Part shown: piece after piece, positions 2,005-36,714 of the stretch | Layout: every line of letters starts with the position of its first letter | Position numbering within the stretch: position 1 is the stretch's first letter | Assembly: GCA_041483195.1 (NCBI GenBank) | Contig: JBGPFC010000005.1 | Span: 32,001-96,000 of the forward strand | Length of the DNA stretch: 64,000 nt | Direction: 5' to 3' | DNA from: Candidatus Eiseniibacteriota bacterium | Lineage (GTDB): Bacteria > Eisenbacteria > RBG-16-71-46 | Notes under the pieces: generated by a model | What the model was told of the DNA's origin: nothing | What the model saw: only the letters and a program-made list of their open reading frames with translations | Database searches by the model: none | Position numbers and translations under genes: made by a program

Positions 2005-3066
2005 ATGTCCTCGTCATTCGGCACGCTGTTCGTCGTCACCACCTTCGGCGAATCCCACGGGCCGGCGGTCGGCGTGGTGGTGGACGGCATGCCGCCCGGC
2101 ATCCGCGTCGAGAGCGCGGAGGTTCAGCGCGAGCTCGATCGGCGCCGGCCCGGGCAGAGCGCGCTCACCACGCAGCGCAAGGAGAGCGACACGGTCGAGA
2201 TCCTCTCCGGGATCTTCGAGGGCCTGAGCATGGGCACGCCGATCGCCATGCTGGTGCGCAATACCGACGCGCGCTCGAAGGACTACGAAGCGCTCAGGGA
2301 CGTCTTCCGCCCCGGCCACGCCGACTACGCGTACTTCGAGAAGTACGGGGTGCGCGACCACCGCGGCGGCGGCCGCGCCTCGGGACGCGAGACCGTCGGC
2401 CGGGTCGCGGCCGGCGCGCTCGCGCGCGCCGCGCTCGCGACGGTCGGAGTCCGGATCGTGGGCGGCACGGTGCAGGTGGGAGCGGTGCGCGCCGAGGCCC
2501 GGCACTGGGACGAGGTCGAGAAGAATCCGGTGCGCTGCCCCGACGCGACCGCGGCCGTGACGATGGCGCGGGTGATCGAGGAGGCCCGCGACGCGAAGGA
2601 TTCGGTGGGGGGCGTGGTCGAGGTGAACGCGTTGGGCGTTCCGGCCGGGTGGGGCGATCCCACCATGGCGAAGCTCGACGCGGCGATCGGCGCCGCGATG
2701 CTCTCGATCCCCGCGACCAAGGGGGTCGAGATCGGCGGCGGCTTCGGCATGTGCGAACGCCACGGCTCGGAGACCAACGACGTGTTCGACGGCGAGCGCT
2801 TCCTCACCAACTTCGCGGGAGGCATCAACGGAGGGATCTCCAGCGGCGCCCCGATCGTCGCGCGCGTGGCGGTGCGCCCGGCGACCTCGATCGGGAAGCC
2901 CCAGACCGCGGCGATGCGCGGGGGCGGCACCACCACCATCGCGATCGAGGGTCGTCACGACCCCTGCATCTGCCCGCGCGTGGTGCCGGTCGCCGAGAGC
3001 ATGCTGGCGCTGGTGCTCGCCGATGCGTGGCTGCGCCAGCGAGCGCTGCGCGGGAGGGAAGCCTGA
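2005..3066 (+). CDS. aroC: Chorismate synthase
   Basis: TFGESHG, RPGHAD, GGGRASGRET and GRHDPCI motifs. Confidence 0.98.
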   Translation: MSSSFGTLFVVTTFGESHGPAVGVVVDGMPPGIRVESAEVQRELDRRRPGQSALTTQRKESDTVEILSGIFEGLSMGTPIAMLVRNTDARSKDYEALRDVFRPGHADYAYFEKYGVRDHRGGGRASGRETVGRVAAGALARAALATVGVRIVGGTVQVGAVRAEARHWDEVEKNPVRCPDATAAVTMARVIEEARDAKDSVGGVVEVNALGVPAGWGDPTMAKLDAAIGAAMLSIPATKGVEIGGGFGMCERHGSETNDVFDGERFLTNFAGGINGGISSGAPIVARVAVRPATSIGKPQTAAMRGGGTTTIAIEGRHDPCICPRVVPVAESMLALVLADAWLRQRALRGREA

Positions 3067-3080
3067 ACGACCGCCGTCGA

Positions 3081-3110
3081 TTGACCCGCCTCGAAAACGC
3101 GTGCTAGGCT
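3081..3110 (+). promoter_or_regulatory. Sigma-70 promoter for the aroF leader
   Basis: TTGACC, 18-nt spacer, TAGGCT with extended TGn. Confidence 0.65.
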
Positions 3111-3140
3111 CGATGCCTCGTTCGACGGAGGTTTGCGCGA

Positions 3141-3224
3141 ATGTTCGGCACCGGGAACTACGAGTGGATCTGGCGCGGGTACGGCTACGCGTGGCGTGGC
3201 CGGGAGACCGCGTCGCTCCGCTGA
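3141..3224 (+). CDS. Aromatic-amino-acid-rich leader peptide MFGTGNYEWIWRGYGYAWRGRETASLR (attenuator peptide for aroF)
   Basis: GGAGGT SD at 3127-3132; 27 codons with 3 Trp, 3 Tyr and 1 Phe among the first 18; followed by a terminator and then DAHP synthase. Confidence 0.8.
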   Translation: MFGTGNYEWIWRGYGYAWRGRETASLR

Positions 3225-3251
3225 TTTCCTCGAGCCTCGCGCGCACTCCCT

Positions 3252-3280
3252 GCCCATGCCTTCGCGGCGTGGGCGTTTTC
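3252..3280 (+). terminator. Attenuator terminator hairpin
   Basis: GCCCATGCC-TTCGC-GGCGTGGGC then GTTTTC; 5' arm can alternatively pair with 3193-3206 (antiterminator). Confidence 0.7.
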
Positions 3281-3304
3281 ATTGGCGGCTGACCGGAGTC
3301 CCAC

Positions 3305-4318
3305 ATGCTGGTGCTGCTCAAACGCGGCGTGAGTGAGCCCGCGATCAACGAGCTCACCTCCTGGCTGCGCATGGCCGGGCTGGGCGTGCATCGCGCCGAC
3401 CACGACGGCCACGTGCGGCTCGCCGCGCTGAGCGATACCGGACTGCTCGACTGGGAGCAGGTGAGGAAGCTCCCGGGCGTCGAATCGGTGACGAAGATCG
3501 CCGTGCCCTTCAAGCTGGTGAGCCGCGCGTTTCATCCGCACGACACGGTGATCACGGTGGGCCGCTGCGCGATCGGCAGCCAGCAGCTCGCGCTGATGGC
3601 GGGGCCCTGCTCGGTCGAGGGCGAAGCCCAGGCCTTCACCATCGCCGAGGCGGTGGCGAAGGCCGGCGCGACCATCATGCGCGGCGGAGCCTACAAGCCG
3701 CGCACCTCGCCATACTCGTTCCAGGGGCTGGGCGAGGAGGGCCTGAAGCTCCTGCGCCGCGCGGCGGACGCGAACGGCCTGGCGGTGGTGAGCGAGGTGA
3801 TGGACTCGCAGCAGGTAGCGCTGGTCGCGCGCTACGCCGACATCCTGCAGGTCGGCGCGCGCAACATGCAGAACTTCTCGCTGCTGAAGGAGGTCGGGCA
3901 GGCGGGCAAGCCGGTACTCCTCAAGCGCGGCCTCGCCTCGACCATCGAGGAATGGCTGATGAGCGCCGAACACATCCTCTCGCAGGGCAACGCGCAGGTG
4001 ATCCTCTGCGAGCGCGGCATCCGCACGTTCGAGACCTACACGCGGAACACGCTCGACCTCAACGCGATTCCGGTGGTGAAGGAGCTGAGCCACCTGCCGG
4101 TGATCGTCGACCCATCGCACGGCACCGGGATCCGCAACAAGGTGGCGCCGATGGCGCGCGCCGCGATCGCCGCCGGCGCCGACGGGCTCATCATCGAGGT
4201 GCATCACGACCCCGACCACGCGCTCTCGGACGGCGCGCAGTCGCTGTATCCCGCGCAGTACGTCGAGCTGGTGGAGCAGATCCGGACGATCGCGACGGTG
4301 CTGGGAAGAACGGTGTGA
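3305..4318 (+). CDS. aroF: DAHP synthase type I-beta with N-terminal regulatory domain
   Basis: AGPCSVE, RGGAYKPRTSPYSFQG, QVGARNMQNF, LLKRG, CERGIRT and DPSH motifs. Confidence 0.97.
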   Translation: MLVLLKRGVSEPAINELTSWLRMAGLGVHRADHDGHVRLAALSDTGLLDWEQVRKLPGVESVTKIAVPFKLVSRAFHPHDTVITVGRCAIGSQQLALMAGPCSVEGEAQAFTIAEAVAKAGATIMRGGAYKPRTSPYSFQGLGEEGLKLLRRAADANGLAVVSEVMDSQQVALVARYADILQVGARNMQNFSLLKEVGQAGKPVLLKRGLASTIEEWLMSAEHILSQGNAQVILCERGIRTFETYTRNTLDLNAIPVVKELSHLPVIVDPSHGTGIRNKVAPMARAAIAAGADGLIIEVHHDPDHALSDGAQSLYPAQYVELVEQIRTIATVLGRTV

Positions 4319-4345
4319 CGAGCGAGACTCGCGATTGCGCCGCGA

Positions 4346-4912
4346 CTACTCGCGCCGGGCCCACAGCCGCTTCCAGATCACGGTGCCCTGTCCGGGCGTG
4401 ACGTACTCGAGCAGCATCGATCCACCGATGTGCCCGTCATCGAAGGTCGCGAAGACAAAGGGCCGATCGAGCAGCGTGATGCCCTCGCGATCGTAGAACC
4501 CCATCCTGCCGCCCAGCACGCCGGGGAAGGGGATAAGCTCCGGGTGCGCGACCAGACTGTCCCTCAGCTGATTCGCCGGATCGACCAGCCCCGCTCTGCG
4601 CAGGTCCAGCTCATCCGAGGGCTCGAACATGGTGCGTTTGGCCAGCCACGTGTGCCGGATCGCCTGTTGCCAGCGCCTCGACTGGAGCTGCGCCACGGTC
4701 GCGGTCCAGACCCAGTACAGCGAGTCCCGGGTGCCAAGCTCGTCGGGAGGGCGTGGGAAGGTCACCGTGCTTCCCAGAGAATCGAGGACCACGGAGGTCC
4801 AGTGTCGGATAGAACGAACTCTCTGCTCTGCACGTTGCCACTGAATCCCGAAAAAGGCGCACAGCAGAAGGCTGATCGCCACGAGGACGCCGGGCGGACC
4901 CAATCTCTGCAT
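4346..4912 (-). CDS. Conserved hypothetical membrane-anchored protein
   Basis: ATG with AAGGA SD; N-terminal TM; C-terminal LIPFPGVLGGRMGF...FDDGHIGGSMLLEY block looks conserved; lower GC than flanks. Confidence 0.7.
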   Translation of the reverse strand: MQRLGPPGVLVAISLLLCAFFGIQWQRAEQRVRSIRHWTSVVLDSLGSTVTFPRPPDELGTRDSLYWVWTATVAQLQSRRWQQAIRHTWLAKRTMFEPSDELDLRRAGLVDPANQLRDSLVAHPELIPFPGVLGGRMGFYDREGITLLDRPFVFATFDDGHIGGSMLLEYVTPGQGTVIWKRLWARRE

Positions 4913-5022: not shown

Positions 5023-5757
5023 TCACCGCGCGCGATAGATCGCCTTGAGGCCGCCCCAGCTGGCGCGACTCGCGGCGGTGGCCGGGTCGGCCGCGACGCA
5101 CAGCACGTGCGGATCGGGAGCGGCGAGCGCGACGAAGCTGGTGCCGAGCCCCTCGGTGGGAACCAGGTATTGCTGGCCGCCCGGAGCGAACGTGATGAGC
5201 GCGACCTCGAGCGCCTTCACGCACGCGCCCGGGGCGCCGCCGCGCTGAAAGCGGAGGCTGGCGGACACACTCGCGTGGGCGGGAAGCGCGTCGGTGTCCA
5301 GCCGCAGGACGTGCGCGGACATGCCGGCGTCGGTCACGATCGGGCCGAACGACGGCGGGAGGGCGAACGCGAGCGCCGGCGCGACCACGATCTGCCCAGA
5401 CGCCGGAACCGAAGCCGCGCTCCAGGTCGCACTCGTGAGCGTCCAGCCGTCTGGCCATTCGGCGACGATGCACTCGCCGCATCGGGTCACGATCGTGTAC
5501 ACCCCGTGGTGCGTGAACCCGCACAGCACCAGACCGGTCGCGAGGCACTCCGAGCCAAAGTCCACGCAGCCCCGATCGGTCGCGATCGTGACCTGAGAGT
5601 CCACCACGATCTGTTCGACGACGAACGTGAATTGAGCCGTACACGTCCCGTCACCCGGGCACAGCTGCGAGAAGCCCGGCGGCAGGCAGCCGCCCAGGAC
5701 CCATGGTGCGCAGAGCAGGGCGAGCGGAGCGAGATGGGCGAGCGAGGCGCGTCGCAT
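5023..5757 (-). CDS. Cys-rich putative lipoprotein with C-terminal SWGGLKAIYR motif
   Basis: Signal peptide with lipobox LGGC; multiple Cys; C-terminus ...RASWGGLKAIYRAR. Confidence 0.75.
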   Translation of the reverse strand: MRRASLAHLAPLALLCAPWVLGGCLPPGFSQLCPGDGTCTAQFTFVVEQIVVDSQVTIATDRGCVDFGSECLATGLVLCGFTHHGVYTIVTRCGECIVAEWPDGWTLTSATWSAASVPASGQIVVAPALAFALPPSFGPIVTDAGMSAHVLRLDTDALPAHASVSASLRFQRGGAPGACVKALEVALITFAPGGQQYLVPTEGLGTSFVALAAPDPHVLCVAADPATAASRASWGGLKAIYRAR

Positions 5758-5816
5758 GGCGATCATGTTCTCACAGACGCGGCCTCGCGCCGCCGAGCCG
5801 TGGCGCGGGCGCATTC

Positions 5817-5846
5817 TTGACATCGCATCGCGCCTCCGGCTTAATC
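5817..5846 (+). promoter_or_regulatory. Probable sigma-70 promoter for tRNA-Val-thrS
   Basis: Perfect TTGACA at 5817-5822; weaker -10 (CTTAAT) 17 nt downstream. Confidence 0.5.
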
Positions 5847-5857
5847 GTCCGCTCCGC

Positions 5858-5933
5858 GGGCGATTAGCTCAGTTGGTAGAGCACTTGCTCGACAAGCAAG
5901 GGGTCACTGGTTCAAGTCCAGTATCGCCCACCA
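5858..5933 (+). tRNA. tRNA-Val(GAC)
   Basis: 76-nt cloverleaf; anticodon arm CTTGC-TCGACAA-GCAAG; GGTTCAAGTCC T arm; encoded CCA. Confidence 0.97.
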
Positions 5934-5998
5934 TTGTTCACGCCGCGCGCCGGCCGCAGCCCGCGTCCCGCGGCCCGCTGAGGACTACCGCCGTGTCG

Positions 5999-7771
5999 AT
6001 GACCACCATCCCCGAGGATCGGCCCGAGGTCGCCCGCTATCCCGGGGGCGAGGCGCTCTACCGCCTGCGCCATTCGGCGGCGCACGTGCTCGCGACCGCG
6101 GTGGTCGAGCTGTTCCCCGACGTGAAGGTGGCGGGCGGGCCGCCCATCGAGAACGGGTTCTACTACGACTTCGCCCGCGAGCAGCCCTTCACCCCCGAGG
6201 ACCTCGAGAAGATCGAGGCGCGCATGCGCGAGATCGTGGCCGCGAACCAGCGCTTCGAATACAGCGAGACCGACAAGGCGGAAGCGCGGGCTCGCTTCGA
6301 GGCGGCGGGGGAGAAGTACAAGCTCCACTTCCTGTCCGTGATTCCCGATGGCGCGAAGGTCACCTACTACAGGAACGGCCCGTTCCTCGACCTCTGCCGC
6401 GGCCCGCACCTGGCGGGCACCGGCGAGCTGAAGGCGTTCAAGCTCACCCACGTCGCGGGCGCCTACTGGCTGGGGCAGGAACGCAACGAGATGCTCCAGC
6501 GCATCTACGGCACCGCCTTCCCATCGCAGGCCGACCTCGACGAGCACCTGAAGCGCGTCGAGGAATCGCTCAAGCGCGACCATCGCAAGCTGGGGCGCGA
6601 GCTCGACCTGTACTCGATCCACGAGGAAGTCGGCGGCGGCCTCATCTTCTGGCATCCGAAGCTGGGGATGGTGCGCCATCTGATGGAGAAGCTGTGGAAG
6701 GACGAGCACCTCCGGCGCGGCTATCAGCTGGTCTACACCCCGCACATCGCGAACGAGAAGCTGTTCGAGATCTCCGGGCACCTCCAGAACTACGCGGACC
6801 TCATGTATTCCGCGATGGATATCGACGGCCAGCCGTATCGCATGAAGCCGATGAACTGCCCCGGACACATCATGATCTACAACAGCCGCAAGCATTCCTA
6901 TCGCGATCTGCCGCTGCGCTTCGCGGAGCTCGGCACCGTTTACCGCTACGAGCGCTCTGGCGTGCTCCATGGCATGGAACGCGTGCGCGGCTTCACCCAG
7001 GACGACTCCCACATCTTCTGCACCCCGGATCAGCTGGCCGGCGAGGTCGAGGGCATCCTCGACCTGATGGACTACCTGCTGCGCACCTTCGGATACGAGT
7101 ACAGCTGCTACCTCGCGACCCGGCCGAAGGAGAAGACCATCGGCAGCGACGAGGAGTGGGCGTTCGCGACCGACGCGCTGCGCAACGCGCTCGAGCATCG
7201 CGGCCTGCCCTACGAGGTCGACGAAGGCGGCGGCGCGTTCTACGCGCCCAAGATCGACGTCAAGCTGCGCGACGCGCTGGGCCGCGAGTGGCAGTGCCCG
7301 ACCATCCAGGTGGATCTCACCCTGCCGAAGCGCTTCGGCGTCCATTACACCGGACCCGACGGACAGGACCACGAGGTCATCATGCTGCACCGCGCGCTCT
7401 ACGGCTCGCTCGAGCGCTTCGCCGGGATCTACATCGAGCACACCGGCGCAGAGTTTCCAGTGTGGATCGCGCCAGTGCAGGTGAAGGTCATCCCCGCGAA
7501 CCCGAAGGCGCTCGACTACGCCGTCGACACGGCGCGGCTGTTGAGGGAAGGCGGCGTGCGCGCCGAGGTGGACCTGCGCGACGAGAAGATGGGCGCCAAG
7601 ATCCGCGACGCCGAGCTCGAGAAGGTGCCATACATGCTGATCGTGGGACCGCGCGAGGCCGAGGCCGGCACCGTTTCGCCGCGCCGCAAGGGCGTGGGCC
7701 AGCTCGAGGCCGTCACCCGCCAGGCGTTCCTCGAGCGCGTGCAGCGGGAGTCGCGCGAGCGCAGCGGGTAG
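5999..7771 (+). CDS. thrS: Threonyl-tRNA synthetase (short form without N-terminal TGS domain)
   Basis: RHSAAHVLA, GFYYD, DLCRGPH, RDHRKLG, KPMNCPGH, YRYERSG, RVRGFTQDD motifs. Confidence 0.97.
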   Translation: MTTIPEDRPEVARYPGGEALYRLRHSAAHVLATAVVELFPDVKVAGGPPIENGFYYDFAREQPFTPEDLEKIEARMREIVAANQRFEYSETDKAEARARFEAAGEKYKLHFLSVIPDGAKVTYYRNGPFLDLCRGPHLAGTGELKAFKLTHVAGAYWLGQERNEMLQRIYGTAFPSQADLDEHLKRVEESLKRDHRKLGRELDLYSIHEEVGGGLIFWHPKLGMVRHLMEKLWKDEHLRRGYQLVYTPHIANEKLFEISGHLQNYADLMYSAMDIDGQPYRMKPMNCPGHIMIYNSRKHSYRDLPLRFAELGTVYRYERSGVLHGMERVRGFTQDDSHIFCTPDQLAGEVEGILDLMDYLLRTFGYEYSCYLATRPKEKTIGSDEEWAFATDALRNALEHRGLPYEVDEGGGAFYAPKIDVKLRDALGREWQCPTIQVDLTLPKRFGVHYTGPDGQDHEVIMLHRALYGSLERFAGIYIEHTGAEFPVWIAPVQVKVIPANPKALDYAVDTARLLREGGVRAEVDLRDEKMGAKIRDAELEKVPYMLIVGPREAEAGTVSPRRKGVGQLEAVTRQAFLERVQRESRERSG

Positions 7772-8704: not shown

Positions 8705-8860
8705 CGTCAAGCAGAAGCCCCGCGCTTCTCACCCGCTGCGGGCCCGTGCGGCCTCGCGTCAGGGTTCTCGGTTCCGGCTCGCGGCTGCATCACGAGTGGA
8801 GCGAATGGCGGCAACGCCGGGCGGGGTCTTTTGTTTGGAGACCCCGCCCGGCGTTTTTTC
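8705..8860 (+). promoter_or_regulatory. Ribosomal protein L20 leader (infC attenuator)
   Basis: AAGCAGAAGC-CCCGC-GCTTCTCACC resembles the L20_leader core; lies upstream of infC-rpmI-rplT and ends in a terminator. Confidence 0.75.
8813..8860 (+). terminator. Intrinsic terminator in the infC leader
   Basis: 17-bp stem AACGCCGGGCGGGGTCT/AGACCCCGCCCGGCGTT ending in a T6 tract. Confidence 0.85.
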
Positions 8861-8916
8861 GCGCGCGCGACGCGCGCGCCGGGTATGCCGAGACCATTCA
8901 CGCGGAGGTGACGACC

Positions 8917-9543
8917 ATTTCCCTGCCGAAGGTACCCGAAGTCCGTGTCAACGAGCGCATCCGTGTTCCCCAGGTCCGCGTCATTGGTGACGACGGCTCG
9001 CAGGTTGGCGTACTTCCGGTGCGCGAAGCGCTCACGCTCGCACAGTCCAGGGGCCTCGATCTGGTCGAGGTGTCGCCCACCGCGCGGCCGCCGGTATGCC
9101 GCATCATGGACTACGGAAAATTCAAGTACGAGCAGAACCGCCGGGCGCGCAAGGCCAAGAAGAAGCAGCACCACATGCAGCTCAAGGAAATCAAGATGCG
9201 GCCCAAGATCGAGGAGCACGACTACACATTCAAGATCCAGCACGCCCGCGAGTTCCTCGAGCAGCGCGACAAGGTCAAGGTCACGGTCACGTTTCGCGGG
9301 CGGGAGATCGCCCATCAGGACATCGGCCACCGTCTGATTCAGAAAGTCATCGCGGCGCTGCTCGACGTGGCATCGGTGGAATCTCCGCCGCGCTCCGAAG
9401 GCCGTACGCTGACCGCGGTGCTGATGCCGAAGCCGCCCAAGACCGGCGGCAAGAGCGAGAGCAAGGACCACGATGGGGCGGTCGCCATACGGCCCCGCAC
9501 CGAAAGCACCGGCCCGCGCGCGGAGACCGGCAGCAGGGAGTGA
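8917..9543 (+). CDS. infC: Translation initiation factor IF-3 (AUU start)
   Basis: GGAGGT SD at 8904-8909 and in-frame ATT at 8917; RVNERIR, LDLVEV, PPVCRIMDYGKFKY motifs. Confidence 0.95.
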   Translation: MSLPKVPEVRVNERIRVPQVRVIGDDGSQVGVLPVREALTLAQSRGLDLVEVSPTARPPVCRIMDYGKFKYEQNRRARKAKKKQHHMQLKEIKMRPKIEEHDYTFKIQHAREFLEQRDKVKVTVTFRGREIAHQDIGHRLIQKVIAALLDVASVESPPRSEGRTLTAVLMPKPPKTGGKSESKDHDGAVAIRPRTESTGPRAETGSRE

Positions 9544-11391: not shown

Positions 11392-13221
11392 ATGAAGAAG
11401 CTGCTGCTGCGCACGCTCGCGGTGCTGGCGATCGCCGCCGCCGTGTTCGTCGTTCCCACCGTGTGGCTCAAGCCCTGGTCGATCGACCACTACTACGCGC
11501 GCGTGTTCATCCGCTATGCGCTCCGCCATCCGGAGCTGCTGTCGCAGCTCGGCATCCTGGACGGCACGCCGTTCGACGGGTACGCGAGCCGGCTCGACGA
11601 CCGGTCGCCAGACTTCGAGCGCCGCGAGTCGCGGCAGGTGGCGGACGAGCTGCGCACGCTTCACAGCTACGATCGCGCCGGCATGTCCGAGAGCGCGCGA
11701 CTCTCGGCCGACGTGCTCGAATGGTTCCTCGACGATCAGGTGCGCGAGAGCGCCTTCCAGTTCTACGACTACCCGGTGAACCAGCTGTTCGGCGTACAGA
11801 GCGGGCTGCCCGAGTTCATGATGTCGGTGCACGCGCTCAGGCGTCCGCGCGACGCTGAGCACTACGTCGCGCGCCTCTCGCGCTTCGGCGAAGCGATGGA
11901 CCAGACCATCCAGGGTCTCGAGCTGCGGCGGGGGATGGGCATCGTGCCGCCGCGCTTCGTGCTCGAGCGGGTGCTGAAGGAGATGCGCGACTTCGCGTCC
12001 GGGCCGGCGGCCGCGAACCCGCTGGTCGTCACGTTCGCGGCGCGCATCGACAGCATCCGCGGACTCGGAGCGGCCGAAAAGCAGGCGCTGATCTCCCGCG
12101 CCACGCACGAGGTGGAGGGCACGGTGTTCCCGGCGTACGCGCGGCTCATCGCGTGTTGCGCGAGCCTCGAGACGGTCTCAACCACCGACGACGGCGTGTG
12201 GAAATTTCCGCGGGGCGACCGCTACTACGACCAGTGCCTGCGTGCCCGCACCACGACCGATCTGCCCGCCGACACCATTCACGCGATGGGGCTGCGCGAG
12301 CTGGATCGCATCCAGTCGGAGATGCGCGGCATCCTGCGCGCGCACGGGATCCAGGCCGGCGATCTCGGGGCCGCGATGCAGAAGCTGGCGAAGGAGCCGC
12401 GCTTTCACTACCCGCCCGGCGATTCCGGACGGGCGCTGCTGCTCGCGGAATACCAGCGCATCATCGACGATGCGGATCACCGGGTCGGCGCGCTCTTCGA
12501 CCTGCGGCCCCACACCGGCGTCAAGGTCCAGCGCGTCCCAGCGTTCCGCGAGGCGACCGCGCCCGCCGCGTACTACAACTCGGCGAGCCTCAGCGGCTCG
12601 CGCCCCGGCATCTTCTTCGTGAACCTGCGCGACCCGGCCGCGACGCGCCGGATGGAGATGCGCACGCTCGCCTACCACGAGGCGATCCCCGGCCACCACT
12701 TCCAGCTCACGATCGCGCAGGAGCTGAAGGGGCTCCCGTTCTTCCGGAAGATCATCCCGTTCACGGCCTACGTCGAAGGCTGGGGGCTCTACGCCGAGCA
12801 TCTCGCCTACGAGAACGGCTTCCAGCGCGACGCCTACGATTCTCTCGGCGCGCTGCAGGCCGAGCTGTTCCGCGCCGTGCGGCTGGTGGTGGACACCGGC
12901 ATTCACAGGGAGCGCTGGAGCCGGCAGCAGGCGATCGACTTCATGGTGCGCAACACCGGCATGGACACCAGCGAGGTCGTGAGCGAGGTCGAGCGCTACA
13001 TCGTGAACCCGGGGCAGGCGTGCGCATACAAGGTCGGCGAGCTGGAGCTGCTCGAGCTCAGGCAGCGCGCTAAGGACGCGCTCGGATCGCGCTTCGACAT
13101 CCGCAAGTTCCACGACGTCGTGCTCGGCAACGGCGCGTTGCCGCTGTCGATCCTCTCGCGCCAGGTGGACGAGTGGATCGCGGCCGAGAAGCGATCGGCC
13201 GCGCAATCGAGCAAGGGCTAG
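11392..13221 (+). CDS. DUF885 family putative secreted metallopeptidase-like protein
   Basis: N-terminal anchor; LAYHEAIPGHHFQ, YVEGWGLYAE, RAVRLVVDTGIH, EVERY, PGQACAYKVG motifs. Confidence 0.9.
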   Translation: MKKLLLRTLAVLAIAAAVFVVPTVWLKPWSIDHYYARVFIRYALRHPELLSQLGILDGTPFDGYASRLDDRSPDFERRESRQVADELRTLHSYDRAGMSESARLSADVLEWFLDDQVRESAFQFYDYPVNQLFGVQSGLPEFMMSVHALRRPRDAEHYVARLSRFGEAMDQTIQGLELRRGMGIVPPRFVLERVLKEMRDFASGPAAANPLVVTFAARIDSIRGLGAAEKQALISRATHEVEGTVFPAYARLIACCASLETVSTTDDGVWKFPRGDRYYDQCLRARTTTDLPADTIHAMGLRELDRIQSEMRGILRAHGIQAGDLGAAMQKLAKEPRFHYPPGDSGRALLLAEYQRIIDDADHRVGALFDLRPHTGVKVQRVPAFREATAPAAYYNSASLSGSRPGIFFVNLRDPAATRRMEMRTLAYHEAIPGHHFQLTIAQELKGLPFFRKIIPFTAYVEGWGLYAEHLAYENGFQRDAYDSLGALQAELFRAVRLVVDTGIHRERWSRQQAIDFMVRNTGMDTSEVVSEVERYIVNPGQACAYKVGELELLELRQRAKDALGSRFDIRKFHDVVLGNGALPLSILSRQVDEWIAAEKRSAAQSSKG

Positions 13222-13375
13222 GCATGGCACCGCCCCGCGACCGCACGCCGGCGCGCGGAGGCGCCAGCCGCGCCGCGCCCGGCCTTCTGTTCCCGCCGCG
13301 CAGTTGCTACATTCCGAGATTCGCGTCGAACCCGCCGCGGGTTCCGGCGCCGAACCCGAGGCCCGAGGATTCCCC

Positions 13376-15802
13376 GTGAAGCTGCCGATCTCCTGGCTGC
13401 GCGAATGGATCGAGCTGGACGCGACGGCGGAAGCCGTGGCGGACGCGCTCACCCGCCGCGGCTTCTACGTCGAGGGCATCGAGACCCACGGCCATGCGTA
13501 CCCGGGCGTCGTGGTCGCGCGCGTGATCGAGGTGAGCCGCCATCCGAACGCCGACCGCCTGTCGCTGTGCCGCGTGGACGGAGGCGCCGGCGAGCTGCAG
13601 GTGGTGTGCGGCGCGCCGAACGTGACGGCCGGAATGCTCGCTCCGCTCGCCACGGTGGGCGCGCGGCTTCCGAACGGCGTCGTGATCGGCGCCAGCAAGA
13701 TCCGCGGCGTGGAGAGCCAGGGCATGCTGTGCTCCCCGCGCGAGCTCGAGATGTCGGACGAGCACCAGGGCATCCTCGATCTGGTGGCGCATCTCGGCAG
13801 CGGCGAGGGCCTGACCGCGGGGCGTCCGCTCGATCAGCTGCTGGGCCCGGCCGAACAGGTGCTCGAAGTCGAGGTGCCGTTCAATCGCCCCGACGCGCTC
13901 GGCATCGTCGGACTCGCCCGCGAGGTCCGCGCGGCGCTCGACGGGCGCTGGACCGCCGCCGCGAGCGCGCGGCTCGCGAACCGCTGGCAGGGCCGCGCCG
14001 ACTTCGACCTCGAGCTGGAGGACGCGGAGGGTTGTCCGCGTTACCTCGCGCAGGTCGTCGAGGAGATCGAGGTGGTCCCCTCGCCGGCGTGGCTCCGGCG
14101 CCGCCTGGAATCCATGGGCCAGCGCGCGATCAACCTGATCGTGGATCTCACGAACTTCGTGCTGTTCGAGTACGGGCAGCCGCTCCACGCGTTCGACCTC
14201 GCCTCGCTGCGCGGCCCGGCGATCCGCGTGCGCCGCGCGCGGGCCGGCGAGCGCATCGTCACGCTCGACGCGAAGGATCGCGCGCTCGATCCGGAAGTGC
14301 TGGTGATCGCCGATCGAGAGCGTCCGGTCGCGATCGCGGGCGTCATGGGGGGCGCCGAGACCGAGGTGACGAGCGCGACGCGAACGCTGCTGCTCGAATG
14401 CGCGTGGTTCCACCCGCGGCGCATCCGCCGCGGCGCACGCGCGCTCGGTCTCGCCACCGAGGCCTCGAAGCGCTACGAGCGCGGCGTGGACCCCGAGATC
14501 GGGCCGGCCGCAGCGGCGCGCTTTCTCGCGCTGCTCAAGGAAACGCTGCCCGGCGTCCGGCCCGCCGCAGCGCGCGAGCGCAATACGCTCGACGGCAAAC
14601 GGCGAACGCTCACGCTGCGCCCTTCGCGCTGTACGCGGCTGCTGGGCCTCGCCGTCACCGCGCCCGAGATGAGGCGACACCTCGAGAGCTTCGAGTTCGC
14701 GGTCGAGGCCGGCGATCCGCTGCGCGTCACGGTGCCCCCGTGGCGCTCCGACATCGCGTTCGAGGACGACCTGGTCGAGGAGGTGGCGCGGGCGAACGGC
14801 TACGATCGCATCCCGGAAGCGCCGCTCGAGACGCGCGGCCGCTACGCGACGCGTTCCGCGCTCGAGCGCACGCTCGAAGCGGCGCGGGTCGCGATGCTGG
14901 CGCGCGGCCTCACCGAAGCCTGGACGACCTCGCTGCTCGGCGAACGCGAGGCGCTCACGACCGCCGGGCTGCTCGGCGAGGAACCCCGGCTGGTGCGCCT
15001 GCGAAATCCGATGAGCCGCGAGGGCGAGTGCCTGCGCCCGAGCCCGGTGGCCGGCCTGTTGCGCGCCTGCGCGCACAACCTCCGGCAGGGTCGCGCCGCC
15101 GTGCGACTCTTCGAAGTGGGGACCGGGTTCCGCGATCTCGGCGGGAAGCTTCCGGAGGAGCGACCCATGCTCGCGGCGCTGGTGACCGGCGCACCGGACG
15201 CGCACGCCCACGATCCGGCCCGGCCGCCGGTGGACTTCGAGCAGGCGAAGGGGCTGTGGGAGGCGTGGCTCGACGAGATGCGCGTTGACACCCCCCAATG
15301 GCGGACCTATTCTGCGCCCGGCTGGAAACCCGGTGCCAGCGCGGAGGTTGCAAGCGGCACTTCGCGCATTGGTTGGACGGGGACGCTGAGCCAGTCGCTG
15401 CTCCGTGAGTGGGACATCGAGGTCCCCGCGCGCCACGACGTTCATCTTTTCGTGGCGCTTCTGGAACCGCTCTCCCGTTCCGAGGCGGCGCGCCCTCGGG
15501 TCCTGCTCCCCGGGCGCTTCCCGCCGGTTCGTCGCGATGTCGCCTTCTTCGTTCCCGAACACGTGACCCATCGCGAAGTCGAACAGGCGCTGGCCGGCGC
15601 GGCCGGGGAGCGGCTGGCCTCGATCGAGGTGTTCGATGTCTACGCGGGTCCCGGCACGCCGAAGGGCATGAAAAGTCTCGCGTACGCGCTTCAGTTCCAG
15701 CATTCTGAGCGCACGTTGACGGAAGCCGAAGTTCAAACCATCCAGGATCGCATGACGGCGGCCGTGACCGCAGCGTGCGGCGGCCAATTGAGAGAACGAT
15801 GA
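13376..15802 (+). CDS. pheT: Phenylalanyl-tRNA synthetase beta subunit
   Basis: GTG start (KLPISWLREWI); HPNADRL, VCGAPN, NRPD, GQPLHAFD motifs; C-terminal FDX-ACB domain. Confidence 0.96.
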   Translation: MKLPISWLREWIELDATAEAVADALTRRGFYVEGIETHGHAYPGVVVARVIEVSRHPNADRLSLCRVDGGAGELQVVCGAPNVTAGMLAPLATVGARLPNGVVIGASKIRGVESQGMLCSPRELEMSDEHQGILDLVAHLGSGEGLTAGRPLDQLLGPAEQVLEVEVPFNRPDALGIVGLAREVRAALDGRWTAAASARLANRWQGRADFDLELEDAEGCPRYLAQVVEEIEVVPSPAWLRRRLESMGQRAINLIVDLTNFVLFEYGQPLHAFDLASLRGPAIRVRRARAGERIVTLDAKDRALDPEVLVIADRERPVAIAGVMGGAETEVTSATRTLLLECAWFHPRRIRRGARALGLATEASKRYERGVDPEIGPAAAARFLALLKETLPGVRPAAARERNTLDGKRRTLTLRPSRCTRLLGLAVTAPEMRRHLESFEFAVEAGDPLRVTVPPWRSDIAFEDDLVEEVARANGYDRIPEAPLETRGRYATRSALERTLEAARVAMLARGLTEAWTTSLLGEREALTTAGLLGEEPRLVRLRNPMSREGECLRPSPVAGLLRACAHNLRQGRAAVRLFEVGTGFRDLGGKLPEERPMLAALVTGAPDAHAHDPARPPVDFEQAKGLWEAWLDEMRVDTPQWRTYSAPGWKPGASAEVASGTSRIGWTGTLSQSLLREWDIEVPARHDVHLFVALLEPLSRSEAARPRVLLPGRFPPVRRDVAFFVPEHVTHREVEQALAGAAGERLASIEVFDVYAGPGTPKGMKSLAYALQFQHSERTLTEAEVQTIQDRMTAAVTAACGGQLRER
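15285..15313 (+). promoter_or_regulatory. Internal sigma-70 promoter inside pheT
   Basis: TTGACA, 17-nt spacer, TATTCT; locally atypical AT-richer codons. Confidence 0.65.
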
Positions 15803-16550: not shown

Positions 16551-16740
16551 AATCCCTGCCGTGCTCGTGATGCCACAACGTTCTTGAACCAACACTTTCG
16601 TTCAGGGTGATCCGGTGGCCGGCGACGTCGAGCCGCGGCTCCCGCGAGGGAACGCGGAGGACCGACCCGGTCGTAAGGAGCACCCACCTGGCTCGCCAGG
16701 TCTCAAGAACGAGCGGGCACACGGCAATTCGGCGGGGAGT
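16551..16740 (+). ncRNA. ssrS: 6S RNA
   Basis: About 190 nt between zapA and rny; terminal pairing TCCCTGCCG/CGGCGGGGA and inner pairing TTCTTGAACC/GGTCTCAAGAA; canonical synteny. Confidence 0.85.
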
Positions 16741-16796
16741 TGTTCCCTGCCTGCGGCCCCGGGGCGTTCGCGCTCCGGGGCGCGGGGGAGATCGGA

Positions 16797-18359
16797 ATGA
16801 ACAACCTCACCTGGATCGGCGGCATCGCCATCGGTGCCGTCTTGGCGTTTGCGGCGGGCTACCTGCTCCGCGCGCGGCTGGGACGTCTCAAGCTGGACAG
16901 CGCCGAGCGGCAGGCGCGCGGACTGCTCGAGCAGGCGGCGCGCGACGCCGAGGGCGTGAAGCGCAACGCGGTGCTCGAAGGCCGCGAGGAGGCGCTGCGG
17001 CACAAGCAGCAGGTCGAGCGCGAGACCCAGGCGGCGCGCGGCACCCAGCTCGCGGCCGAACGGGCGTTCCAGGAGAAGGAAGCGGCCTTCAATCGGCGCG
17101 TCGAGCTGATCGAGAAGAAGGACCGCGACCAGAAGCGCGTCGAGCAGGAGATCGCAGCGCGCGAGCAGGCGGTGTCCCGCCGCAACGGCGATCTCGACCG
17201 GCTGATCGGCGAGCAGACCACGCGCCTCGAGAAGATCGCGGGGCTCAGCGCGGACGAGGCGCGGGCGCAACTGCTCGCGAGCATCGAGAGCGAGGCGCGG
17301 GCGGAGGCCTCGCGGCTGGTCGCCGAGGTGCGCGACAGCGCGCAGCGCAACGCGGAGCGTGAGGCGCGAAAGATCATCACGCTCGCCATCCAGCGCTTCG
17401 CCGCCGATCACGCCTCCGAATCGTCGGTGTCCGTGGTCCATCTGCCGAGCGACGACATGAAGGGCCGCATCATCGGTCGCGAGGGCCGCAACATCCGCTC
17501 GTTCGAGATCATCACCGGGGTGGACGTCATCATCGACGACACGCCGGAGGCCGTGATCCTCTCGGGCTTCGACCCGGTGCGCCGCGAGATCGCGCGGCTG
17601 GCCCTCGAGCGGCTGGTCGCCGACGGCCGGATCCACCCCGCGCGCATCGAGGAGGTCGTGGCCAAGGTGCGGACCGAGGTCGAGAACAAGATCCGCGAGC
17701 TGGGCGAGATGGCCTGCCTCGAGGTCGGCGTTCACGGTATCCACGCGGAGCTGCAGAACACCCTGGGCCGGCTCCACTACCGCACGTCGTACGGGCAGAA
17801 CATCCTGCGCCACTCGATCGAGGTCGCGCACCTCGCGGGGATGATGGCGGCCGAGATCGGCATGGACCAGAAGATGGCGAAGCGCGGCGGGCTGATGCAC
17901 GACATCGGCAAGGCGATCGACCACGACCACGAGGGGACGCATCCGGCGCTCGGCATGGAGCTGGCCGCCCGTTTCGGCGAGCCCCAGCCGGTGCTCGAGG
18001 CGATCGGCTATCACCACGACGACTACTCGGGCGGCAGCCTGTGGCCGGTGCTGATCTCGGCGGCCGACGCGATCTCGGGCGCTCGCCCCGGCGCCCGGCG
18101 CGAGAGCCTCGAGATCTACATCAAGCGCCTCGAGGCGCTCGAGAAGATCGCGAACGGTTTCCCGGGCGTCGAAAAGTCGTACGCGATCCAGGCCGGGCGC
18201 GAAGTGCGCATCATGGTCGAGCACGGCCGGGTGGACGATGCGCGCGCCCAGGGGCTCGCGAGCGAGATCGCGCGCCGGATCGAGAAGGAGCTCCAGTATC
18301 CGGGCCAGATCCGCGTGACCGTGATCCGCGAAACGCGCGCCGTGGACTACGCGAAGTAG
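16797..18359 (+). CDS. rny: Ribonuclease Y
   Basis: N-terminal TM, coiled coil, KH domain ([13 protein letters not shown]), HD domain (HDIGKA), [12 protein letters not shown]. Confidence 0.97.
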
Positions 18360-18365
18360 GCGCGC

Positions 18366-20051
18366 GTGCTCAATCTCCTCTTCATCGCCGACGTCATCGG
18401 CTCGCCGGGCCGCGAGGTGGTCCGCGCGCTGCTGCCCGGGCTGCGCCGCAGGCACGACATCCACCTGGTGATCTGCAACGCCGAGAACTCGGCGGCCGGA
18501 TTCGGAGTCACCCGCGACGTGGCGCGCGAGCTGTTCGACTCCGGCATCGACGTGCTCACCGGCGGCAACCATCTGTGGGACAAGAAGGACTCGATGGACT
18601 ACCTCGCCGATGAGCCGCGACTGGTGAGGCCCGCGAATCTTCCTCCGGGCACGCCGGGCGAGGGCTATCGCGTGTTCAAGGCGGCCGACGGCACGCCGGT
18701 GGCGGTGGTGAATCTCCTGGGCCGCGTCTTCATGAAAGAGGCGGACTGTCCGTTCCGGGCGATGGACCGGGTGCTCGCCGCGCTCAAGGATCAGTGCAAG
18801 GTCGTCGTCGTCGACTTCCACGCCGAGACCACCGCCGAGAAGGCGGCGATGGGCTGGCACCTCGACGGCCGCGCGAGCGCCGTGCTCGGCACCCACACCC
18901 ACGTCCAGACCGCGGATGATCGCGTGCTGCCGAACGGCACGGCGTTCATCTGCGACGCGGGCATGACGGGCGGATTCGAATCGGTGATCGGGATGGACCG
19001 TCACGCCGCGCTGCGGCGGTTTCTGACGCTGCTGCCCGAGCGTCTCACGCCGGCGGGCGGCGATCCGCGCTTCAACGGCGTCGTGTTGCGGATCGATCCG
19101 GCGACCGGCCGCGCGCACTCGATCGAACGCCTCCAGATCCCGCACGCGCCCCCGCCGAAGGACGGCGCCCGCCGCCTGAGCGGAGAAGAACCGGCGATCG
19201 CGGTGCGGTACGCGGCGCGGCTCGAGGTCGAGCAGCTGATCACGGCCGGGGTCACGCCCGCGCTGGCGCTGATCTCGGTGGGCGAGGATCCCGCATCGAG
19301 GATCTACCTCAAGCGCAAGGCCGAGGCCTGCGCCGAGGTGGGGATCGCGGTCCGCCGCGTCTCGATCGAGGCCGGCGCCGACACCGCGGGCGTGATCGAG
19401 CGGGTGCGCGCGCTGGGCGCCAATCCGGACGTGCACGGCATCCTGATCCAGCTCCCGCTCGCTCCGCCCCTGGACCCGCGGGCAGTGCTCGAAGCCATCC
19501 CGCCCGGCAAGGACGTCGATGGATTCCATCCGGTCAACGCCGGCGCGCTCGCGCTCGGGCTGCCGGGATTCGTGCCGGCGACGCCGCGCGGCATCCTCGA
19601 GCTGCTGCGCTACCACCAGATCCCGCTCGCCGGAAAACACGCGGTGGTGCTGGGCCGCAGCAACATCGTGGGGCGGCCGCTCGCGACGCTGTTGTCGAGC
19701 CGCGGCGTCGACATGACGGTCACGCTCGGTCACAGCGCGAGCGGCCTCGCGCTCCCCGCGTTGGCGCGCGAGGCCGACGTGCTGGTGGCCGCGATCGGCC
19801 GGCCCGAGTTCGTCACCGCGGACTGGGTGAAACCCGGCGCGACCGTGGTGGACGTGGGCATGCATCGCGTGCCGTCGCCGGACGATCGCCGCGGCACTCG
19901 CCTCACCGGCGACGTCGACGCGGCTGCGGTCGCGCGGGTCGCGGGGGCGCTCACCCCGGTCCCGGGCGGAGTGGGGCCCATGACGGTCGCGATGGTGGTC
20001 GCGAACACCGTGCTGGCCGCACAGCGTCAGGCCGCCGCCGCGAAGGTGTGA
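18366..20051 (+). CDS. Fusion of YmdB-type metallophosphoesterase and FolD methylene-THF dehydrogenase/cyclohydrolase
   Basis: N half: NAEN, GGNHLWD, RPAN, DFHAETTAEK, GTHTHVQTAD, DAGMTG. C half: VGEDPASRIY, GILIQLP, KDVDGFHP, GRSNIVGRP, TPVPGGVGPMT. No stop between them. Confidence 0.9.
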   Translation: MLNLLFIADVIGSPGREVVRALLPGLRRRHDIHLVICNAENSAAGFGVTRDVARELFDSGIDVLTGGNHLWDKKDSMDYLADEPRLVRPANLPPGTPGEGYRVFKAADGTPVAVVNLLGRVFMKEADCPFRAMDRVLAALKDQCKVVVVDFHAETTAEKAAMGWHLDGRASAVLGTHTHVQTADDRVLPNGTAFICDAGMTGGFESVIGMDRHAALRRFLTLLPERLTPAGGDPRFNGVVLRIDPATGRAHSIERLQIPHAPPPKDGARRLSGEEPAIAVRYAARLEVEQLITAGVTPALALISVGEDPASRIYLKRKAEACAEVGIAVRRVSIEAGADTAGVIERVRALGANPDVHGILIQLPLAPPLDPRAVLEAIPPGKDVDGFHPVNAGALALGLPGFVPATPRGILELLRYHQIPLAGKHAVVLGRSNIVGRPLATLLSSRGVDMTVTLGHSASGLALPALAREADVLVAAIGRPEFVTADWVKPGATVVDVGMHRVPSPDDRRGTRLTGDVDAAAVARVAGALTPVPGGVGPMTVAMVVANTVLAAQRQAAAAKV

Positions 20052-28347: not shown

Positions 28348-30042
28348 GTGCTCGAACGCCTGCGCATCCGCGATCTCGCGCTGCTCGACGAGGCCGAGGT
28401 CGGCTTCGGCCCCGGACTCAACGTGGTCACGGGCGAGACCGGCGCTGGCAAGTCGCTGCTCGTCCAGGCGGTGAGCCTGCTGGTCGGCGGACGCGCGGAC
28501 GGAGAAGCGGTGCGCGATGGCGCGCCGGCGGCGGTGGTCGAAGGCGAGTTCCGGCTGTCAGGCGAACACGCGCGCCGCGCCGGCGCGCTGCTCGCGGAAT
28601 GGGGCCTCGAGTTCGACGGGGAATCGCTGATCGTGCGCCGCGAGGTGCAGCCGGGCGGCCGGAGCCGGGCGACGGTCAATCAGTCCGCGATCACGCAGAG
28701 CGCGCTCCGCCGTCTCGGCGAGATCCTGCTCGACATTCATGGACAGCACGAGCACCAGAGCCTGCTGCGCGAGGGCGCGGCGCTGATCACGCTCGATCGT
28801 CTAGCGTCGCTCGATCCGGAGCGGGCGCGATACGCGGAGGCGCTCGCGGCGTTCCGCGAGGCGCAGGGCGAGCACGATCGGCTGGTCTCCTCGCTCGCGA
28901 CCTACGCCGAGCGCCGCGACTATCTCTCCGCCGCTGCGCGCGAACTGGACGAGGCGCGGCTGCGGGAAGGGGAGGACGAGGAGCTGCGGCACGAGGCGGC
29001 CCGGCTCGCGCACGCGGACCGGCTGCGCGCGCTGGCGGCGCAGGCGCTCGAGCGCCTCTCCGAAGCCGACGGCGCGGCGGTGGAGTCGCTGGGGCAGGCG
29101 CAACGCGCGCTCGAGCAGGCGGCCGCGCTCGACTCCAGCCTCGAGCCGATGCTCGAGCCGTTGCGCGAGGCCGCGTTCGCGGCCGGCGAGACGGCACGCG
29201 CGCTGGCCGACTACGCCTCGCGGCTCGAAGCCGATCCGGCCGCGCTCGAATCGATCGAGGCGCGGCGCGATCTCTACGCGCGGCTCACGCGCAAGTACCG
29301 ACGCGCGATCGGCGAGCTCATCCACTGGCGCGAAGAGCTCGCGCTCGAGCTCGCGTATGGGGAAGACGCGGAGGGCGCGCTGGAGCGGGCGCGCCACAAA
29401 TGCGAAAGCGCCGAATCCGAGGCGCGCGCGCTCGCGAAGCTCCTCTCCGCCCGCCGCGAGCGGGCCGCCGCCGAATGGAGCGCGAGCCTCACGCGCGAGC
29501 TCAAGCCGCTCGGGTTCCAGCACGCGCGCATCGCCTTCGACGTGAAGCCGTCGGAGGACGGTGGCCTCACCGCGAACGGGCTCGACGAGGTGAGCCTGAG
29601 CTTCGGGGCGAACCCGGGCGAGCCGGCGCGAGCGCTCGAGCGCATCGTATCCGGGGGCGAGCTGTCGCGGGTCATGCTCGCCTTGAAGACAGCGCTGGAA
29701 ACCCAAGACCGCGTTGACCTTCTGCTCTTCGATGAAGTAGATTCCGGCATCGGCGGTGCGGTGGCCCAGGCGGTCGGAGAGCGCCTCCGGCGGCTGTCCC
29801 GGCACCGCCAGATCATTTGCGTGACCCACCTTCCCATGATCGCCGCCCTCGCCACCCATCATCTCGGAGTCACCAAGCGCGCCCTCGCGGGCCGCACCGT
29901 CGCGCGCATCGCCGCGCTCGACCGGGGCGCCCGGGTGGAAGAGCTGGCCCGCATGCTCGCCGGAGACCGCGTCACCGAGACCACCCGCCGCCAGGCGCGT
30001 GAGCTGCTCGACGAGACTCCGCAGCGGTCCGCCGCGCGATGA
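28348..30042 (+). CDS. recN: DNA repair protein RecN
   Basis: TGETGAGKS, IHGQHEHQ, coiled coil, SGGELSR, FDEVDSG, VTHLP motifs. Confidence 0.97.
   Translation: MLERLRIRDLALLDEAEVGFGPGLNVVTGETGAGKSLLVQAVSLLVGGRADGEAVRDGAPAAVVEGEFRLSGEHARRAGALLAEWGLEFDGESLIVRREVQPGGRSRATVNQSAITQSALRRLGEILLDIHGQHEHQSLLREGAALITLDRLASLDPERARYAEALAAFREAQGEHDRLVSSLATYAERRDYLSAAARELDEARLREGEDEELRHEAARLAHADRLRALAAQALERLSEADGAAVESLGQAQRALEQAAALDSSLEPMLEPLREAAFAAGETARALADYASRLEADPAALESIEARRDLYARLTRKYRRAIGELIHWREELALELAYGEDAEGALERARHKCESAESEARALAKLLSARRERAAAEWSASLTRELKPLGFQHARIAFDVKPSEDGGLTANGLDEVSLSFGANPGEPARALERIVSGGELSRVMLALKTALETQDRVDLLLFDEVDSGIGGAVAQAVGERLRRLSRHRQIICVTHLPMIAALATHHLGVTKRALAGRTVARIAALDRGARVEELARMLAGDRVTETTRRQARELLDETPQRSAAR
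29714..29743 (+). promoter_or_regulatory. Putative internal promoter in recN serving the trp genes
   Basis: TTGACC, 18-nt spacer, TAGATT, about 300 nt upstream of trpE. Confidence 0.45.
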
Positions 30043-31505: not shown

Positions 31506-31516
31506 CGGCGGGGAGC

Positions 31517-33111: not shown

Positions 33112-33145
33112 TCTCCGGCACGGCGTTCAGACCGACGAGGCGCAC

Positions 33146-33958: not shown

Positions 33959-33959
33959 T

Positions 33960-36497: not shown

Positions 36498-36604
36498 GGG
36501 CGCACCCCGCGCGAGGAAGCCGGCGCGGTTTCGCGCACCGGCGCGCGGCACGCCGCGCCGCGCGTGACGCGCCTCGCGACGGTGTGCTATAAACACTGGC
36601 CGCT

Positions 36605-36681: not shown

Positions 36682-36714
36682 GTCCTTCCTTCCGCCGATC
36701 TCCGGCACGACCCC

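Follow-up and report, generated by a model that had tools for sequence, protein, structure and literature searches.

The gene for 3-deoxy-D-arabino-heptulosonate 7-phosphate (DAHP) synthase in a Candidatus Eisenbacteria genome is very probably controlled by a trpL-type, ribosome-mediated leader-peptide transcription attenuator. The element lies in a 64,000-nucleotide (nt) stretch of that genome (contig JBGPFC010000005.1, positions 32,001 to 96,000; the whole stretch is here called the window, and positions are counted from its first letter), and the gene that it precedes is the sole DAHP synthase found in the assembly. We base this assignment on the sequence elements of the leader, their conservation in relatives, covariation within the competing RNA pairings, and the geometry of the leader codons relative to those pairings. 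Attenuation of the trpL/pheL type had been proposed for this leader in a short note made from the DNA sequence alone (the original prediction). It is supported, still at the level of sequence, by an upstream open reading frame (uORF), its frame and stop codon, a promoter, a terminator, and competing pairings, all conserved before DAHP synthase in 42 of the family's 60 genomes.

The leader starts with a forward-strand promoter at 3081-3110, which consists of the -35 element TTGACC (3081-3086) and the -10 element TAGGCT (3105-3110), separated by 18 nt of which the last three are TGC, with a TG at 3102-3103 as in promoters of the extended -10 type. We recognized this promoter because it is conserved in relatives, a simple sigma-70 scan having missed it: among 43 distinct orthologous elements, TTGACN-N16-19-TAnnnT occurs upstream in 33 and the extended -10 motif TGnTAnnnT in 34. 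A strong Shine-Dalgarno (SD) sequence, GGAGG at 3127-3131, stands 9 nt 5' of the ATG of a 27-codon open reading frame (ORF) at 3141-3224, which ends in TGA (3222-3224) and would encode the peptide MFGTGNYEWIWRGYGYAWRGRETASLR; a GGAG-like motif also precedes the start in the relatives listed. Seven of the 27 codons are aromatic (Phe at 3144; Tyr at 3159, 3180, and 3186; Trp at 3165, 3171, and 3192), and the frame appears in an ORF listing when the minimum length is set to 20 amino acids. Past the stop codon is an intrinsic terminator (3251-3283) with a stem of 10 pairs at 3251-3275, 7 of them G-C, a loop at 3261-3265, and then TTTTC, with the T tract at 3276-3279 and further T's at 3282-3283. 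This terminator lies 25 nt 5' of the DAHP synthase start and is the single terminator-like site in 2500-4500. The promoter, the strong SD, a 27-residue ORF with seven aromatic codons of all three types, and the terminator hairpin with its U tract had all been called in the original prediction, and all were borne out, the promoter by sequence and conservation and the ORF by translation of 3141-3224.

The 43 related elements also define a promoter motif of this uncultured family, in which TTGACC is followed after 18 nt by TAGGCT or TACGCT, and the spacer has (A/G)TGC at its 3' end. This conserved motif may help to locate other promoters in the phylum.

From within the leader ORF to the end of the terminator stem, the RNA can be divided into four segments with alternative partners, all on the forward strand. 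Segment 1 (3163-3190) is the 5' strand of a leader hairpin and holds the W-I-W-R-G-Y-G-Y codons; it contributes the 5' arm of an inner helix, P1 (3182-3190), and one side of an outer helix (3163-3178). Segment 2 (3193-3222) pairs either with segment 1, through the P1 3' arm (3194-3202) and the other side of the outer helix (3208-3222), or, through 3193-3206 and 3210-3214, with segment 3 (3238-3260), in which CGCGC (3238-3242) and CTCCC (3246-3250) are complementary to it. The remainder of segment 3, GCCCATGCC (3252-3260), is the contested part: it pairs with segment 2 in the antiterminator or with segment 4 (3266-3275) in the terminator. The 2:3 antiterminator is built of three helices, namely the switching helix 3193-3200/3252-3260, GGGAG 3202-3206/CTCCC 3246-3250, and 3210-3213/3239-3242. 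The near-complementarity of 3193-3206 to 3246-3260, which had been noticed in the original prediction, amounts to 13 pairs with a duplex energy of -21.0 kcal/mol, and it is mutually exclusive with the terminator. The leader stop codon falls in the apical loop of the antiterminator, 16 nt past the switching part of segment 2.

Folding the leader, as the original prediction had suggested, gave three alternative hairpins, each of which is more stable than expected from dinucleotide shuffles. Hairpin 1:2 (3163-3222) has an energy of -37.7 kcal/mol (z -3.80), with 0 of 200 shuffles as good; hairpin 2:3 (3193-3260) has -33.8 kcal/mol (z -3.34); and the terminator, 3:4, has -18.8 kcal/mol (z -3.79).

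We examined DAHP synthase orthologues in 40 related genomes, which gave 30 loci. Nineteen of them carry a Trp/Tyr-rich uORF of 25-41 codons that ends 72-128 nt before the gene; 15 of these belong to the same family and 4 to other families of the order (one being L026). In the four loci from other families the Trp/Tyr-rich leaders, which also have terminators, are different from those of the family. At 9 of the other 11 loci, aroC, the gene upstream of the leader in our window, ends ~0-100 nt from the DAHP synthase start, and no leader is present. The near abutment of the two genes and the missing attenuator are seen at L017, L018, L019, L021, L022, L025, L027, L028, and L029. We read this distribution as an attenuator that is lost, or was never gained, in several genera.

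A covariance model (R1), built from 15 aligned sequences of the family, was searched against 151 genomes of the phylum, 126 of which have a close DAHP synthase orthologue. It returned one match of 51.9-130.5 bits per genome in 42 members of the family (f1; 60 genomes), the source assembly included, and no such match outside f1; the next best score anywhere was 33.1 bits. The single match in the source assembly is the element in the window. Together with one further genome (G023) and a named metagenome-assembled genome (MAG), L033, which is identical to G023 in the matched stretch, these matches make up 44 strong loci with 43 distinct sequences. All 44 matches are followed, after 10-70 nt, by the start of a DAHP synthase orthologue. 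Nine weak R1 matches (22-33 bits, L152-L160) were set aside as chance or terminator-only matches, as no DAHP synthase lies in the 285-1300 nt of sequence available downstream of them and no aromatic uORF was seen.

We also sampled 20 upstream regions from further families of the phylum. Two loci of family f10 (L165 and L167) have a similar promoter, a leader of ~23 codons with Phe, Tyr, and Trp, and a terminator before DAHP synthase. A third f10 locus, L168, keeps the promoter and a terminator-like hairpin, with no leader ORF seen, and may be a decayed or differently working copy. No aromatic leaders were seen among the sampled regions of f7, f8, f9, f11, and f13-f18. The region of L171 is cut by a contig end.

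The search for aromatic uORFs before DAHP synthase orthologues, another check named in the original prediction, was positive at the strong R1 loci, 44 of 44 of which have an aromatic-rich uORF in frame. In the 13 codons before the P1 loop, the mean number of aromatic codons is 4.12 in the uORF frame, versus 0.28 and 0.33 in the other two frames (n=43), and an in-frame stop follows a conserved GAG codon after 18-27 nt in 43 of 43. Across the family, this 13-codon stretch is 17% Trp, 10% Tyr, and 4.7% Phe; the commonest positions are -9, -7, and -5 for Trp, -10, -8, -4, and -2 for Tyr, and -12 and -2 for Phe. The predicted sensor is thus Trp- and Tyr-dominated. The identity of the aromatic residue (W, Y, or F at -10, -8, -4, and -2) shifts between genera, as in W-I-W-R-W-Y-G-Y, W-Y-E-R-W-H-G-F, and F-W-Y-W-S-Y-R-G-F-G-F. 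These swaps, as read from the alignment, argue for selection on codon class at these positions, not on the peptide or the RNA.

This pattern bears on whether the RNA could be a ligand- or protein-binding switch (a riboswitch, T-box, or TRAP-like element) in which the ORF has no part. Alternative terminator and antiterminator hairpins would serve as the output stage of such switches too, but the SD, start, frame, stop, and aromatic codon class are all conserved while the bases change, and no extra conserved structured aptamer lies between the promoter and segment 1. Rfam likewise offers no candidate. Within 2900-3500 at E <=10, it gave just three unrelated matches at chance level (E 1.8-4.3), with no match to Trp_leader, Phe_leader, or T-box, and at gathering score it gave tRNA alone in eight related loci. 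We consider such a switch highly improbable.

To place the leader ORF in its genomic context, we scanned both strands of the 4.17-Mb assembly and obtained 65,676 start-stop pairs of 10-45 codons. An SD-like motif precedes 6,856 of these short frames, 27 of which have at least 4 aromatic codons within 8. A terminator-like hairpin follows within ~110 nt in just 1 of the 27, and that frame is the leader ORF at 3141-3224. A chance ORF, with the hairpin ending aroC transcription and a separate promoter driving DAHP synthase, is extremely unlikely and already at odds with the comparative data. In its favor, short frames are common at a G+C content of ~68%, and the sigma-70 scan found 0 promoter-like sites in 2500-4500. 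The terminator, however, stands downstream, not upstream, of the conserved promoter; the excess of aromatic codons is confined to the uORF frame in the 43 sequences; and the genome contains a single such element.

The competing pairings themselves are conserved. Pairs were counted over the 43 distinct sequences in an alignment (A4) fitted to a model that already holds P1, part of GGGAG:CUCCC, the innermost helix, and the terminator, but not the switching helix. P1 and the terminator together were paired in 92.7% of cells, versus 33-51% when the pairing was slid, and 7 pairs had changed on both sides; P1 alone was paired in 86.7% of cells with 5 covarying pairs, and the terminator stem in 97.9%. 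For the switching helix plus GGGAG:CUCCC, the figures were 89.2% versus 40-49% slid, with 4 double-changed pairs, and for the full 18-pair antiterminator they were 83.9% versus 35-52% slid, with 9 double-changed pairs. One 2:3 pair, at alignment columns 44/119, is G-U, G-C, or A-U and is broken in 0 of 42 sequences. In the lineage of L013 and L120, segments 2, 3, and 4 have changed jointly to A/U/A, preserving both the 2:3 and the 3:4 pair. At least 5 T's occur in the 9 nt after the terminator stem in 33 of 43 sequences. The outer helix of 1:2 (3163-3178:3208-3222) was rejected as a conserved feature and is retained only in the 1:2 hairpin of this genome.

We modeled the ribosome by masking a ribosome-sized stretch, codon by codon, on a transcript cut before segment 4; this is an equilibrium model and is sensitive to its assumptions. 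With no ribosome on the cut transcript, the 2:3 probability is 0.00 and segment 3 is free, so the terminator can form. With a mask reaching from -15 to +12 of the A site, 2:3 forms (P 0.85) solely with the A site at 3174-3182, and placing the 3' edge of the mask at +14 or +16 gives ranges of 3171-3177 and 3168-3177, respectively. From an A site of 3189 onward the 2:3 probability is ~0, and in the 43 sequences it likewise reaches 0 when the A site has moved beyond the W-Y-G codons. The model thereby predicts W-R-G-Y as the competent stall sites in this genome and W-R-W-Y in the family consensus.

The remaining aromatic codons, W3165, F3144, and W3192, lie outside the modeled range. A stall at W3192 should not relieve termination, because this codon is in the 1:2 loop and the ribosome would cover segment 2. 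Sensing of Phe in this genome is unlikely under the model, because the sole Phe is codon 2, ~36 nt before the switch, and a stall there leaves 1:2 intact. The original prediction had one leader sensing Trp, Tyr, and Phe; its Trp and Tyr part agrees with the codons that dominate the leader, while the Phe part, which depends on a single codon beyond the regulatory range, is unlikely to hold in this genome.

In the mechanism that we infer, transcription would start at the promoter at 3081-3110, probably supplemented by read-through from aroC, and the 27-codon ORF would be translated behind the moving RNA polymerase. With an ample supply of charged Trp- and Tyr-tRNA, the ribosome would pass the aromatic codons and reach the stop at 3222. 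Segment 2 would then be either paired with segment 1 (3163-3222) or covered by the ribosome, segment 3 would be free, and the terminator at 3251-3275 with its T tract would form, ending transcription before DAHP synthase. When Trp or Tyr is scarce, the ribosome would stall with its A site at ~3171-3182, where it covers segment 1 and not segment 2. Segments 2 (3193-3214) and 3 (3238-3260) could then pair ahead of the synthesis of segment 4, pre-empting the terminator kinetically, and DAHP synthase would be transcribed in response to the low aromatic supply.

A different use of the nascent peptide would be an arrest of the TnaC kind, in which the conserved C-terminal A-W-R-G-R-E-x-A-x-x-R senses a free amino acid in the exit tunnel and the ribosome stalls at or near the stop codon. 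TnaC itself has a conserved exit-tunnel peptide motif, stalls at its stop codon, and acts on downstream Rho-dependent termination. The W-R-G-R-E tail of our leader is indeed strongly conserved at the peptide level and includes a Trp. However, this tail is segment 2 base for base (the P1 3' arm plus GGGAG), so the RNA pairings explain its conservation, and the peptide is variable beyond it. In our model, a ribosome stalled at the stop would leave segment 3 unpaired with segment 2, and an intrinsic terminator with a competing hairpin is found here instead of a long Rho-loading spacer. We therefore regard peptide arrest as very unlikely.

Several observations weigh against attenuation as we describe it. 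Some concern the distribution and the uORF: no copy of the element turned up in 18 of the family's 60 genomes, several of which have aroC directly abutting DAHP synthase, so it is dispensable, and an ATG, GTG, or TTG start is lacking at the expected place in 2 of 44 uORFs (L136 and L140), with the start chosen by eye in three further sequences. Others concern the RNA. The whole 190-nt region is only modestly better than shuffles (z -1.92), and counts on the helices already present in the model lean towards those helices. Of the two central pairs of the switching helix, one is broken in 22 and the other in 15 of the 43 sequences; the outer helix of 1:2 is just 69% paired with weak covariation, and 10 of 43 terminators have a weak T tract (<=4 T in 9 nt). 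The modeled stall range is narrow and shifts with the assumed footprint. None of the three footprints brings the first Trp codon (3165) into it, and W3171 and Y3180 are the only aromatic codons of this genome that it includes, because the third Trp of the consensus is a Gly in this genome. Finally, on the full transcript at equilibrium the terminator has a probability of 0.93 at every ribosome position, so antitermination must be kinetic, a step that we assume. In the E. coli trp attenuator, too, the antiterminator is understood to act kinetically, by forming first.

These points give some room to a reading in which the uORF acts without an antiterminator switch, for example by protecting against Rho or by modulating downstream translation, and the hairpin at 3251-3275 is a constitutive partial terminator. 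A terminator that wins at equilibrium would suit this reading, as would the weak T tracts, the weakened central antiterminator helix of some orthologues, and the class-level relative L168 with its promoter, its hairpin, and no visible uORF. An unused 2:3 pairing, on the other hand, is hard to reconcile with its retention in 84-89% of cells versus 35-52% slid and with compensatory changes, the joint ones in segments 2, 3, and 4 included. The DAHP synthase SD (3295-3298) lies 20 nt past the stem and thus outside it. We judge a leader without the switch to be unlikely, and attenuation through the competing 2:3 and 3:4 pairings remains the reading that we prefer.

The regulated gene occupies 3305-4318 on the forward strand, has its own SD (GGAG, 3295-3298) before the ATG at 3305, and encodes 337 residues with a PF00793 barrel and an N-terminal ferredoxin-like domain, PF18152. 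The product scores 483 bits against NCBIfam NF006421 (cut-off 335) and 132 bits against the 3-deoxy-D-manno-octulosonate 8-phosphate (KDO8P) synthase models, below their cut-offs of 242-314, and it matches PDB entries 1rzm and 3pg9 over the full length. The predicted enzyme is a type I-beta DAHP synthase with a ferredoxin-like regulatory domain. Its closest named relatives, at 78-79% identity, are in three MAGs labeled Candidatus Eisenbacteria bacterium. The source assembly is itself Candidatus Eisenbacteria (4.17 Mb, 93 contigs, 96.8% complete), and no type II DAHP synthase (PF01474) was found in it at that completeness. Two further PF00793 matches in the assembly were rejected as DAHP synthases because they are KDO8P synthases; these paralogues (G000:C2:215237-216061 and G000:C41:1281-2102) both exceed the NCBIfam equivalog cut-offs.

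Upstream, aroC (chorismate synthase; Pfam PF01264, E 6.9e-131; NCBIfam TIGR00033) lies at 2005-3066 on the same strand. A terminator scan of 2500-4500 found none between the aroC stop and the leader promoter, so transcripts reading through from aroC would also encounter the switch. Annotation of the locus should include the 27-codon ORF and a leader RNA of ~165 nt, and the terminator before DAHP synthase should not be taken for the end of aroC. The locus is present in 24 DNA sequencing runs, labeled as sediment or soil metagenomes, and no RNA runs are listed.

The window also contains a trp operon (region 28348-36700) with trpE (30039-31505), trpD (32077-33111), trpC (33146-33958), trpF (33960-34616), and trpB (34591-35790). 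The start of trpE overlaps the stop of a recN-like gene (28348-30042) by 4 nt, which leaves no room for a trp leader, and neither R1 nor the genome-wide ORF scan found a second such element in the assembly. The statement in the original prediction that the trp genes here have no leader therefore holds. The DAHP synthase of Thermotoga maritima, to which our enzyme matches end to end, senses Tyr and Phe allosterically through its ferredoxin-like domain. By analogy, we tentatively raise the possibility of a division of labor in which the ferredoxin-like domain senses Tyr and Phe and the Trp-dominated leader adds a Trp signal, and in which aromatic leaders at DAHP synthase genes form an undescribed, very widespread, and independently evolved class across phyla. 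If this were true, aromatic biosynthesis in this organism would have no Trp-responsive transcriptional control other than the attenuator, the trp operon having no leader.

Two other gene arrangements were seen in the window. A 561-codon forward-strand frame (18366-20051), directly 3' of the RNase Y gene (16740-18359), encodes a YmdB-like domain (residues 5-256) and, after it, both FolD domains (272-555). It could be a true fusion, or the ORF call could have joined two genes. In addition, pheT (13304-15802, forward strand) is preceded by a DUF885 gene (11392-13221) instead of pheS, with thrS (5756-7771) and infC (8746-9543) upstream of the DUF885 gene.

A close mechanistic parallel to the element is the E. 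coli trpL attenuator of trpEDCBA, which in the Yanofsky model works through two adjacent Trp codons. The Eisenbacteria leader shares with trpL a division into four segments that can pair 1:2, 2:3, and 3:4, the placement of Trp codons in segment 1, and an intrinsic terminator that outstabilizes the antiterminator, so that the choice between them is kinetic. Unlike trpL, it controls the entry enzyme of the common pathway and not the trp operon, its Trp and Tyr codons are mixed over ~8 codons, and its stop codon lies in the apical loop of the antiterminator. The E. coli thr and ilvGMEDA leaders each carry codons for several amino acids in one leader. Our element resembles them in that several charged tRNAs would be read by one switch, a likeness at the level of mechanism, as the amino acids and pathways differ.

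The closest precedent by target is in Corynebacterium glutamicum. A leader with Phe-Tyr-Phe before aroF is described by Mentz et al. 2013 (PMC4046766), and a review that summarizes Neshat et al. 2014 (PMC11802643) gives its later name, aroR, and has it respond to limitation for Phe and not for Tyr. There, ribosomes that stall at the aromatic codons are assumed to increase transcription of the gene for the first step of the shikimate pathway, as we propose here. At E. coli aroF, a Tyr-tRNA-sensing attenuator is an old proposal, cited in a table of PMC2659441. The C. glutamicum and Eisenbacteria elements share a short aromatic-codon ORF and an attenuator directly before a DAHP synthase gene. They differ in that the Eisenbacteria leader is Trp-dominated, whereas the other reads Phe-Tyr-Phe, and they belong to different phyla. 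We draw the analogy between them at the level of function. The enzymes differ as well, ours being of type I-beta with a ferredoxin-like domain and C. glutamicum aroF presumably encoding another DAHP synthase subtype.

A further group of leaders came from outside the phylum. At 13 of 77 such loci (L045, L046, L050, L053, L057, L066, L067, L075, L077, L080, L093, L102, and L106), a Phe/Trp-rich uORF that ends in ...F-R-S-V-H-P-G lies ~125-270 nt upstream of the DAHP synthase start. Their MAG labels are mostly Desulfobacterales, Syntrophobacterales, or delta proteobacterium. In these leaders the aromatic codons lie within one hairpin, and another long hairpin and a strong terminator are present as well. 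Four of the loci gave no Rfam match. They share with the Eisenbacteria element the target family (the enzymes are 53-62% identical) and the logic, while the leader sequence and RNA are unrelated and Phe-dominated.

Our literature searches yielded no account of an Eisenbacteria leader attenuator, nor of any DAHP synthase gene preceded by a Trp-rich leader; Vitreschak et al. 2004 and Neshat et al. 2014 may bear on this novelty. Leader-peptide attenuators are a known kind of element, with the precedent in C. glutamicum, and the finding would not surprise a specialist; the Eisenbacteria element itself is apparently new and has no Rfam family. It gives an uncultured candidate phylum, for which nothing is known about gene regulation, a testable regulatory element, the first one there, together with a promoter motif. 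It also indicates that the committed aromatic step is under mixed Trp/Tyr leader control beyond Corynebacterium. Together with the Desulfobacterota-type leaders, the element points to repeated, independent evolution of leader attenuators at DAHP synthase genes, none of them catalogued in Rfam.

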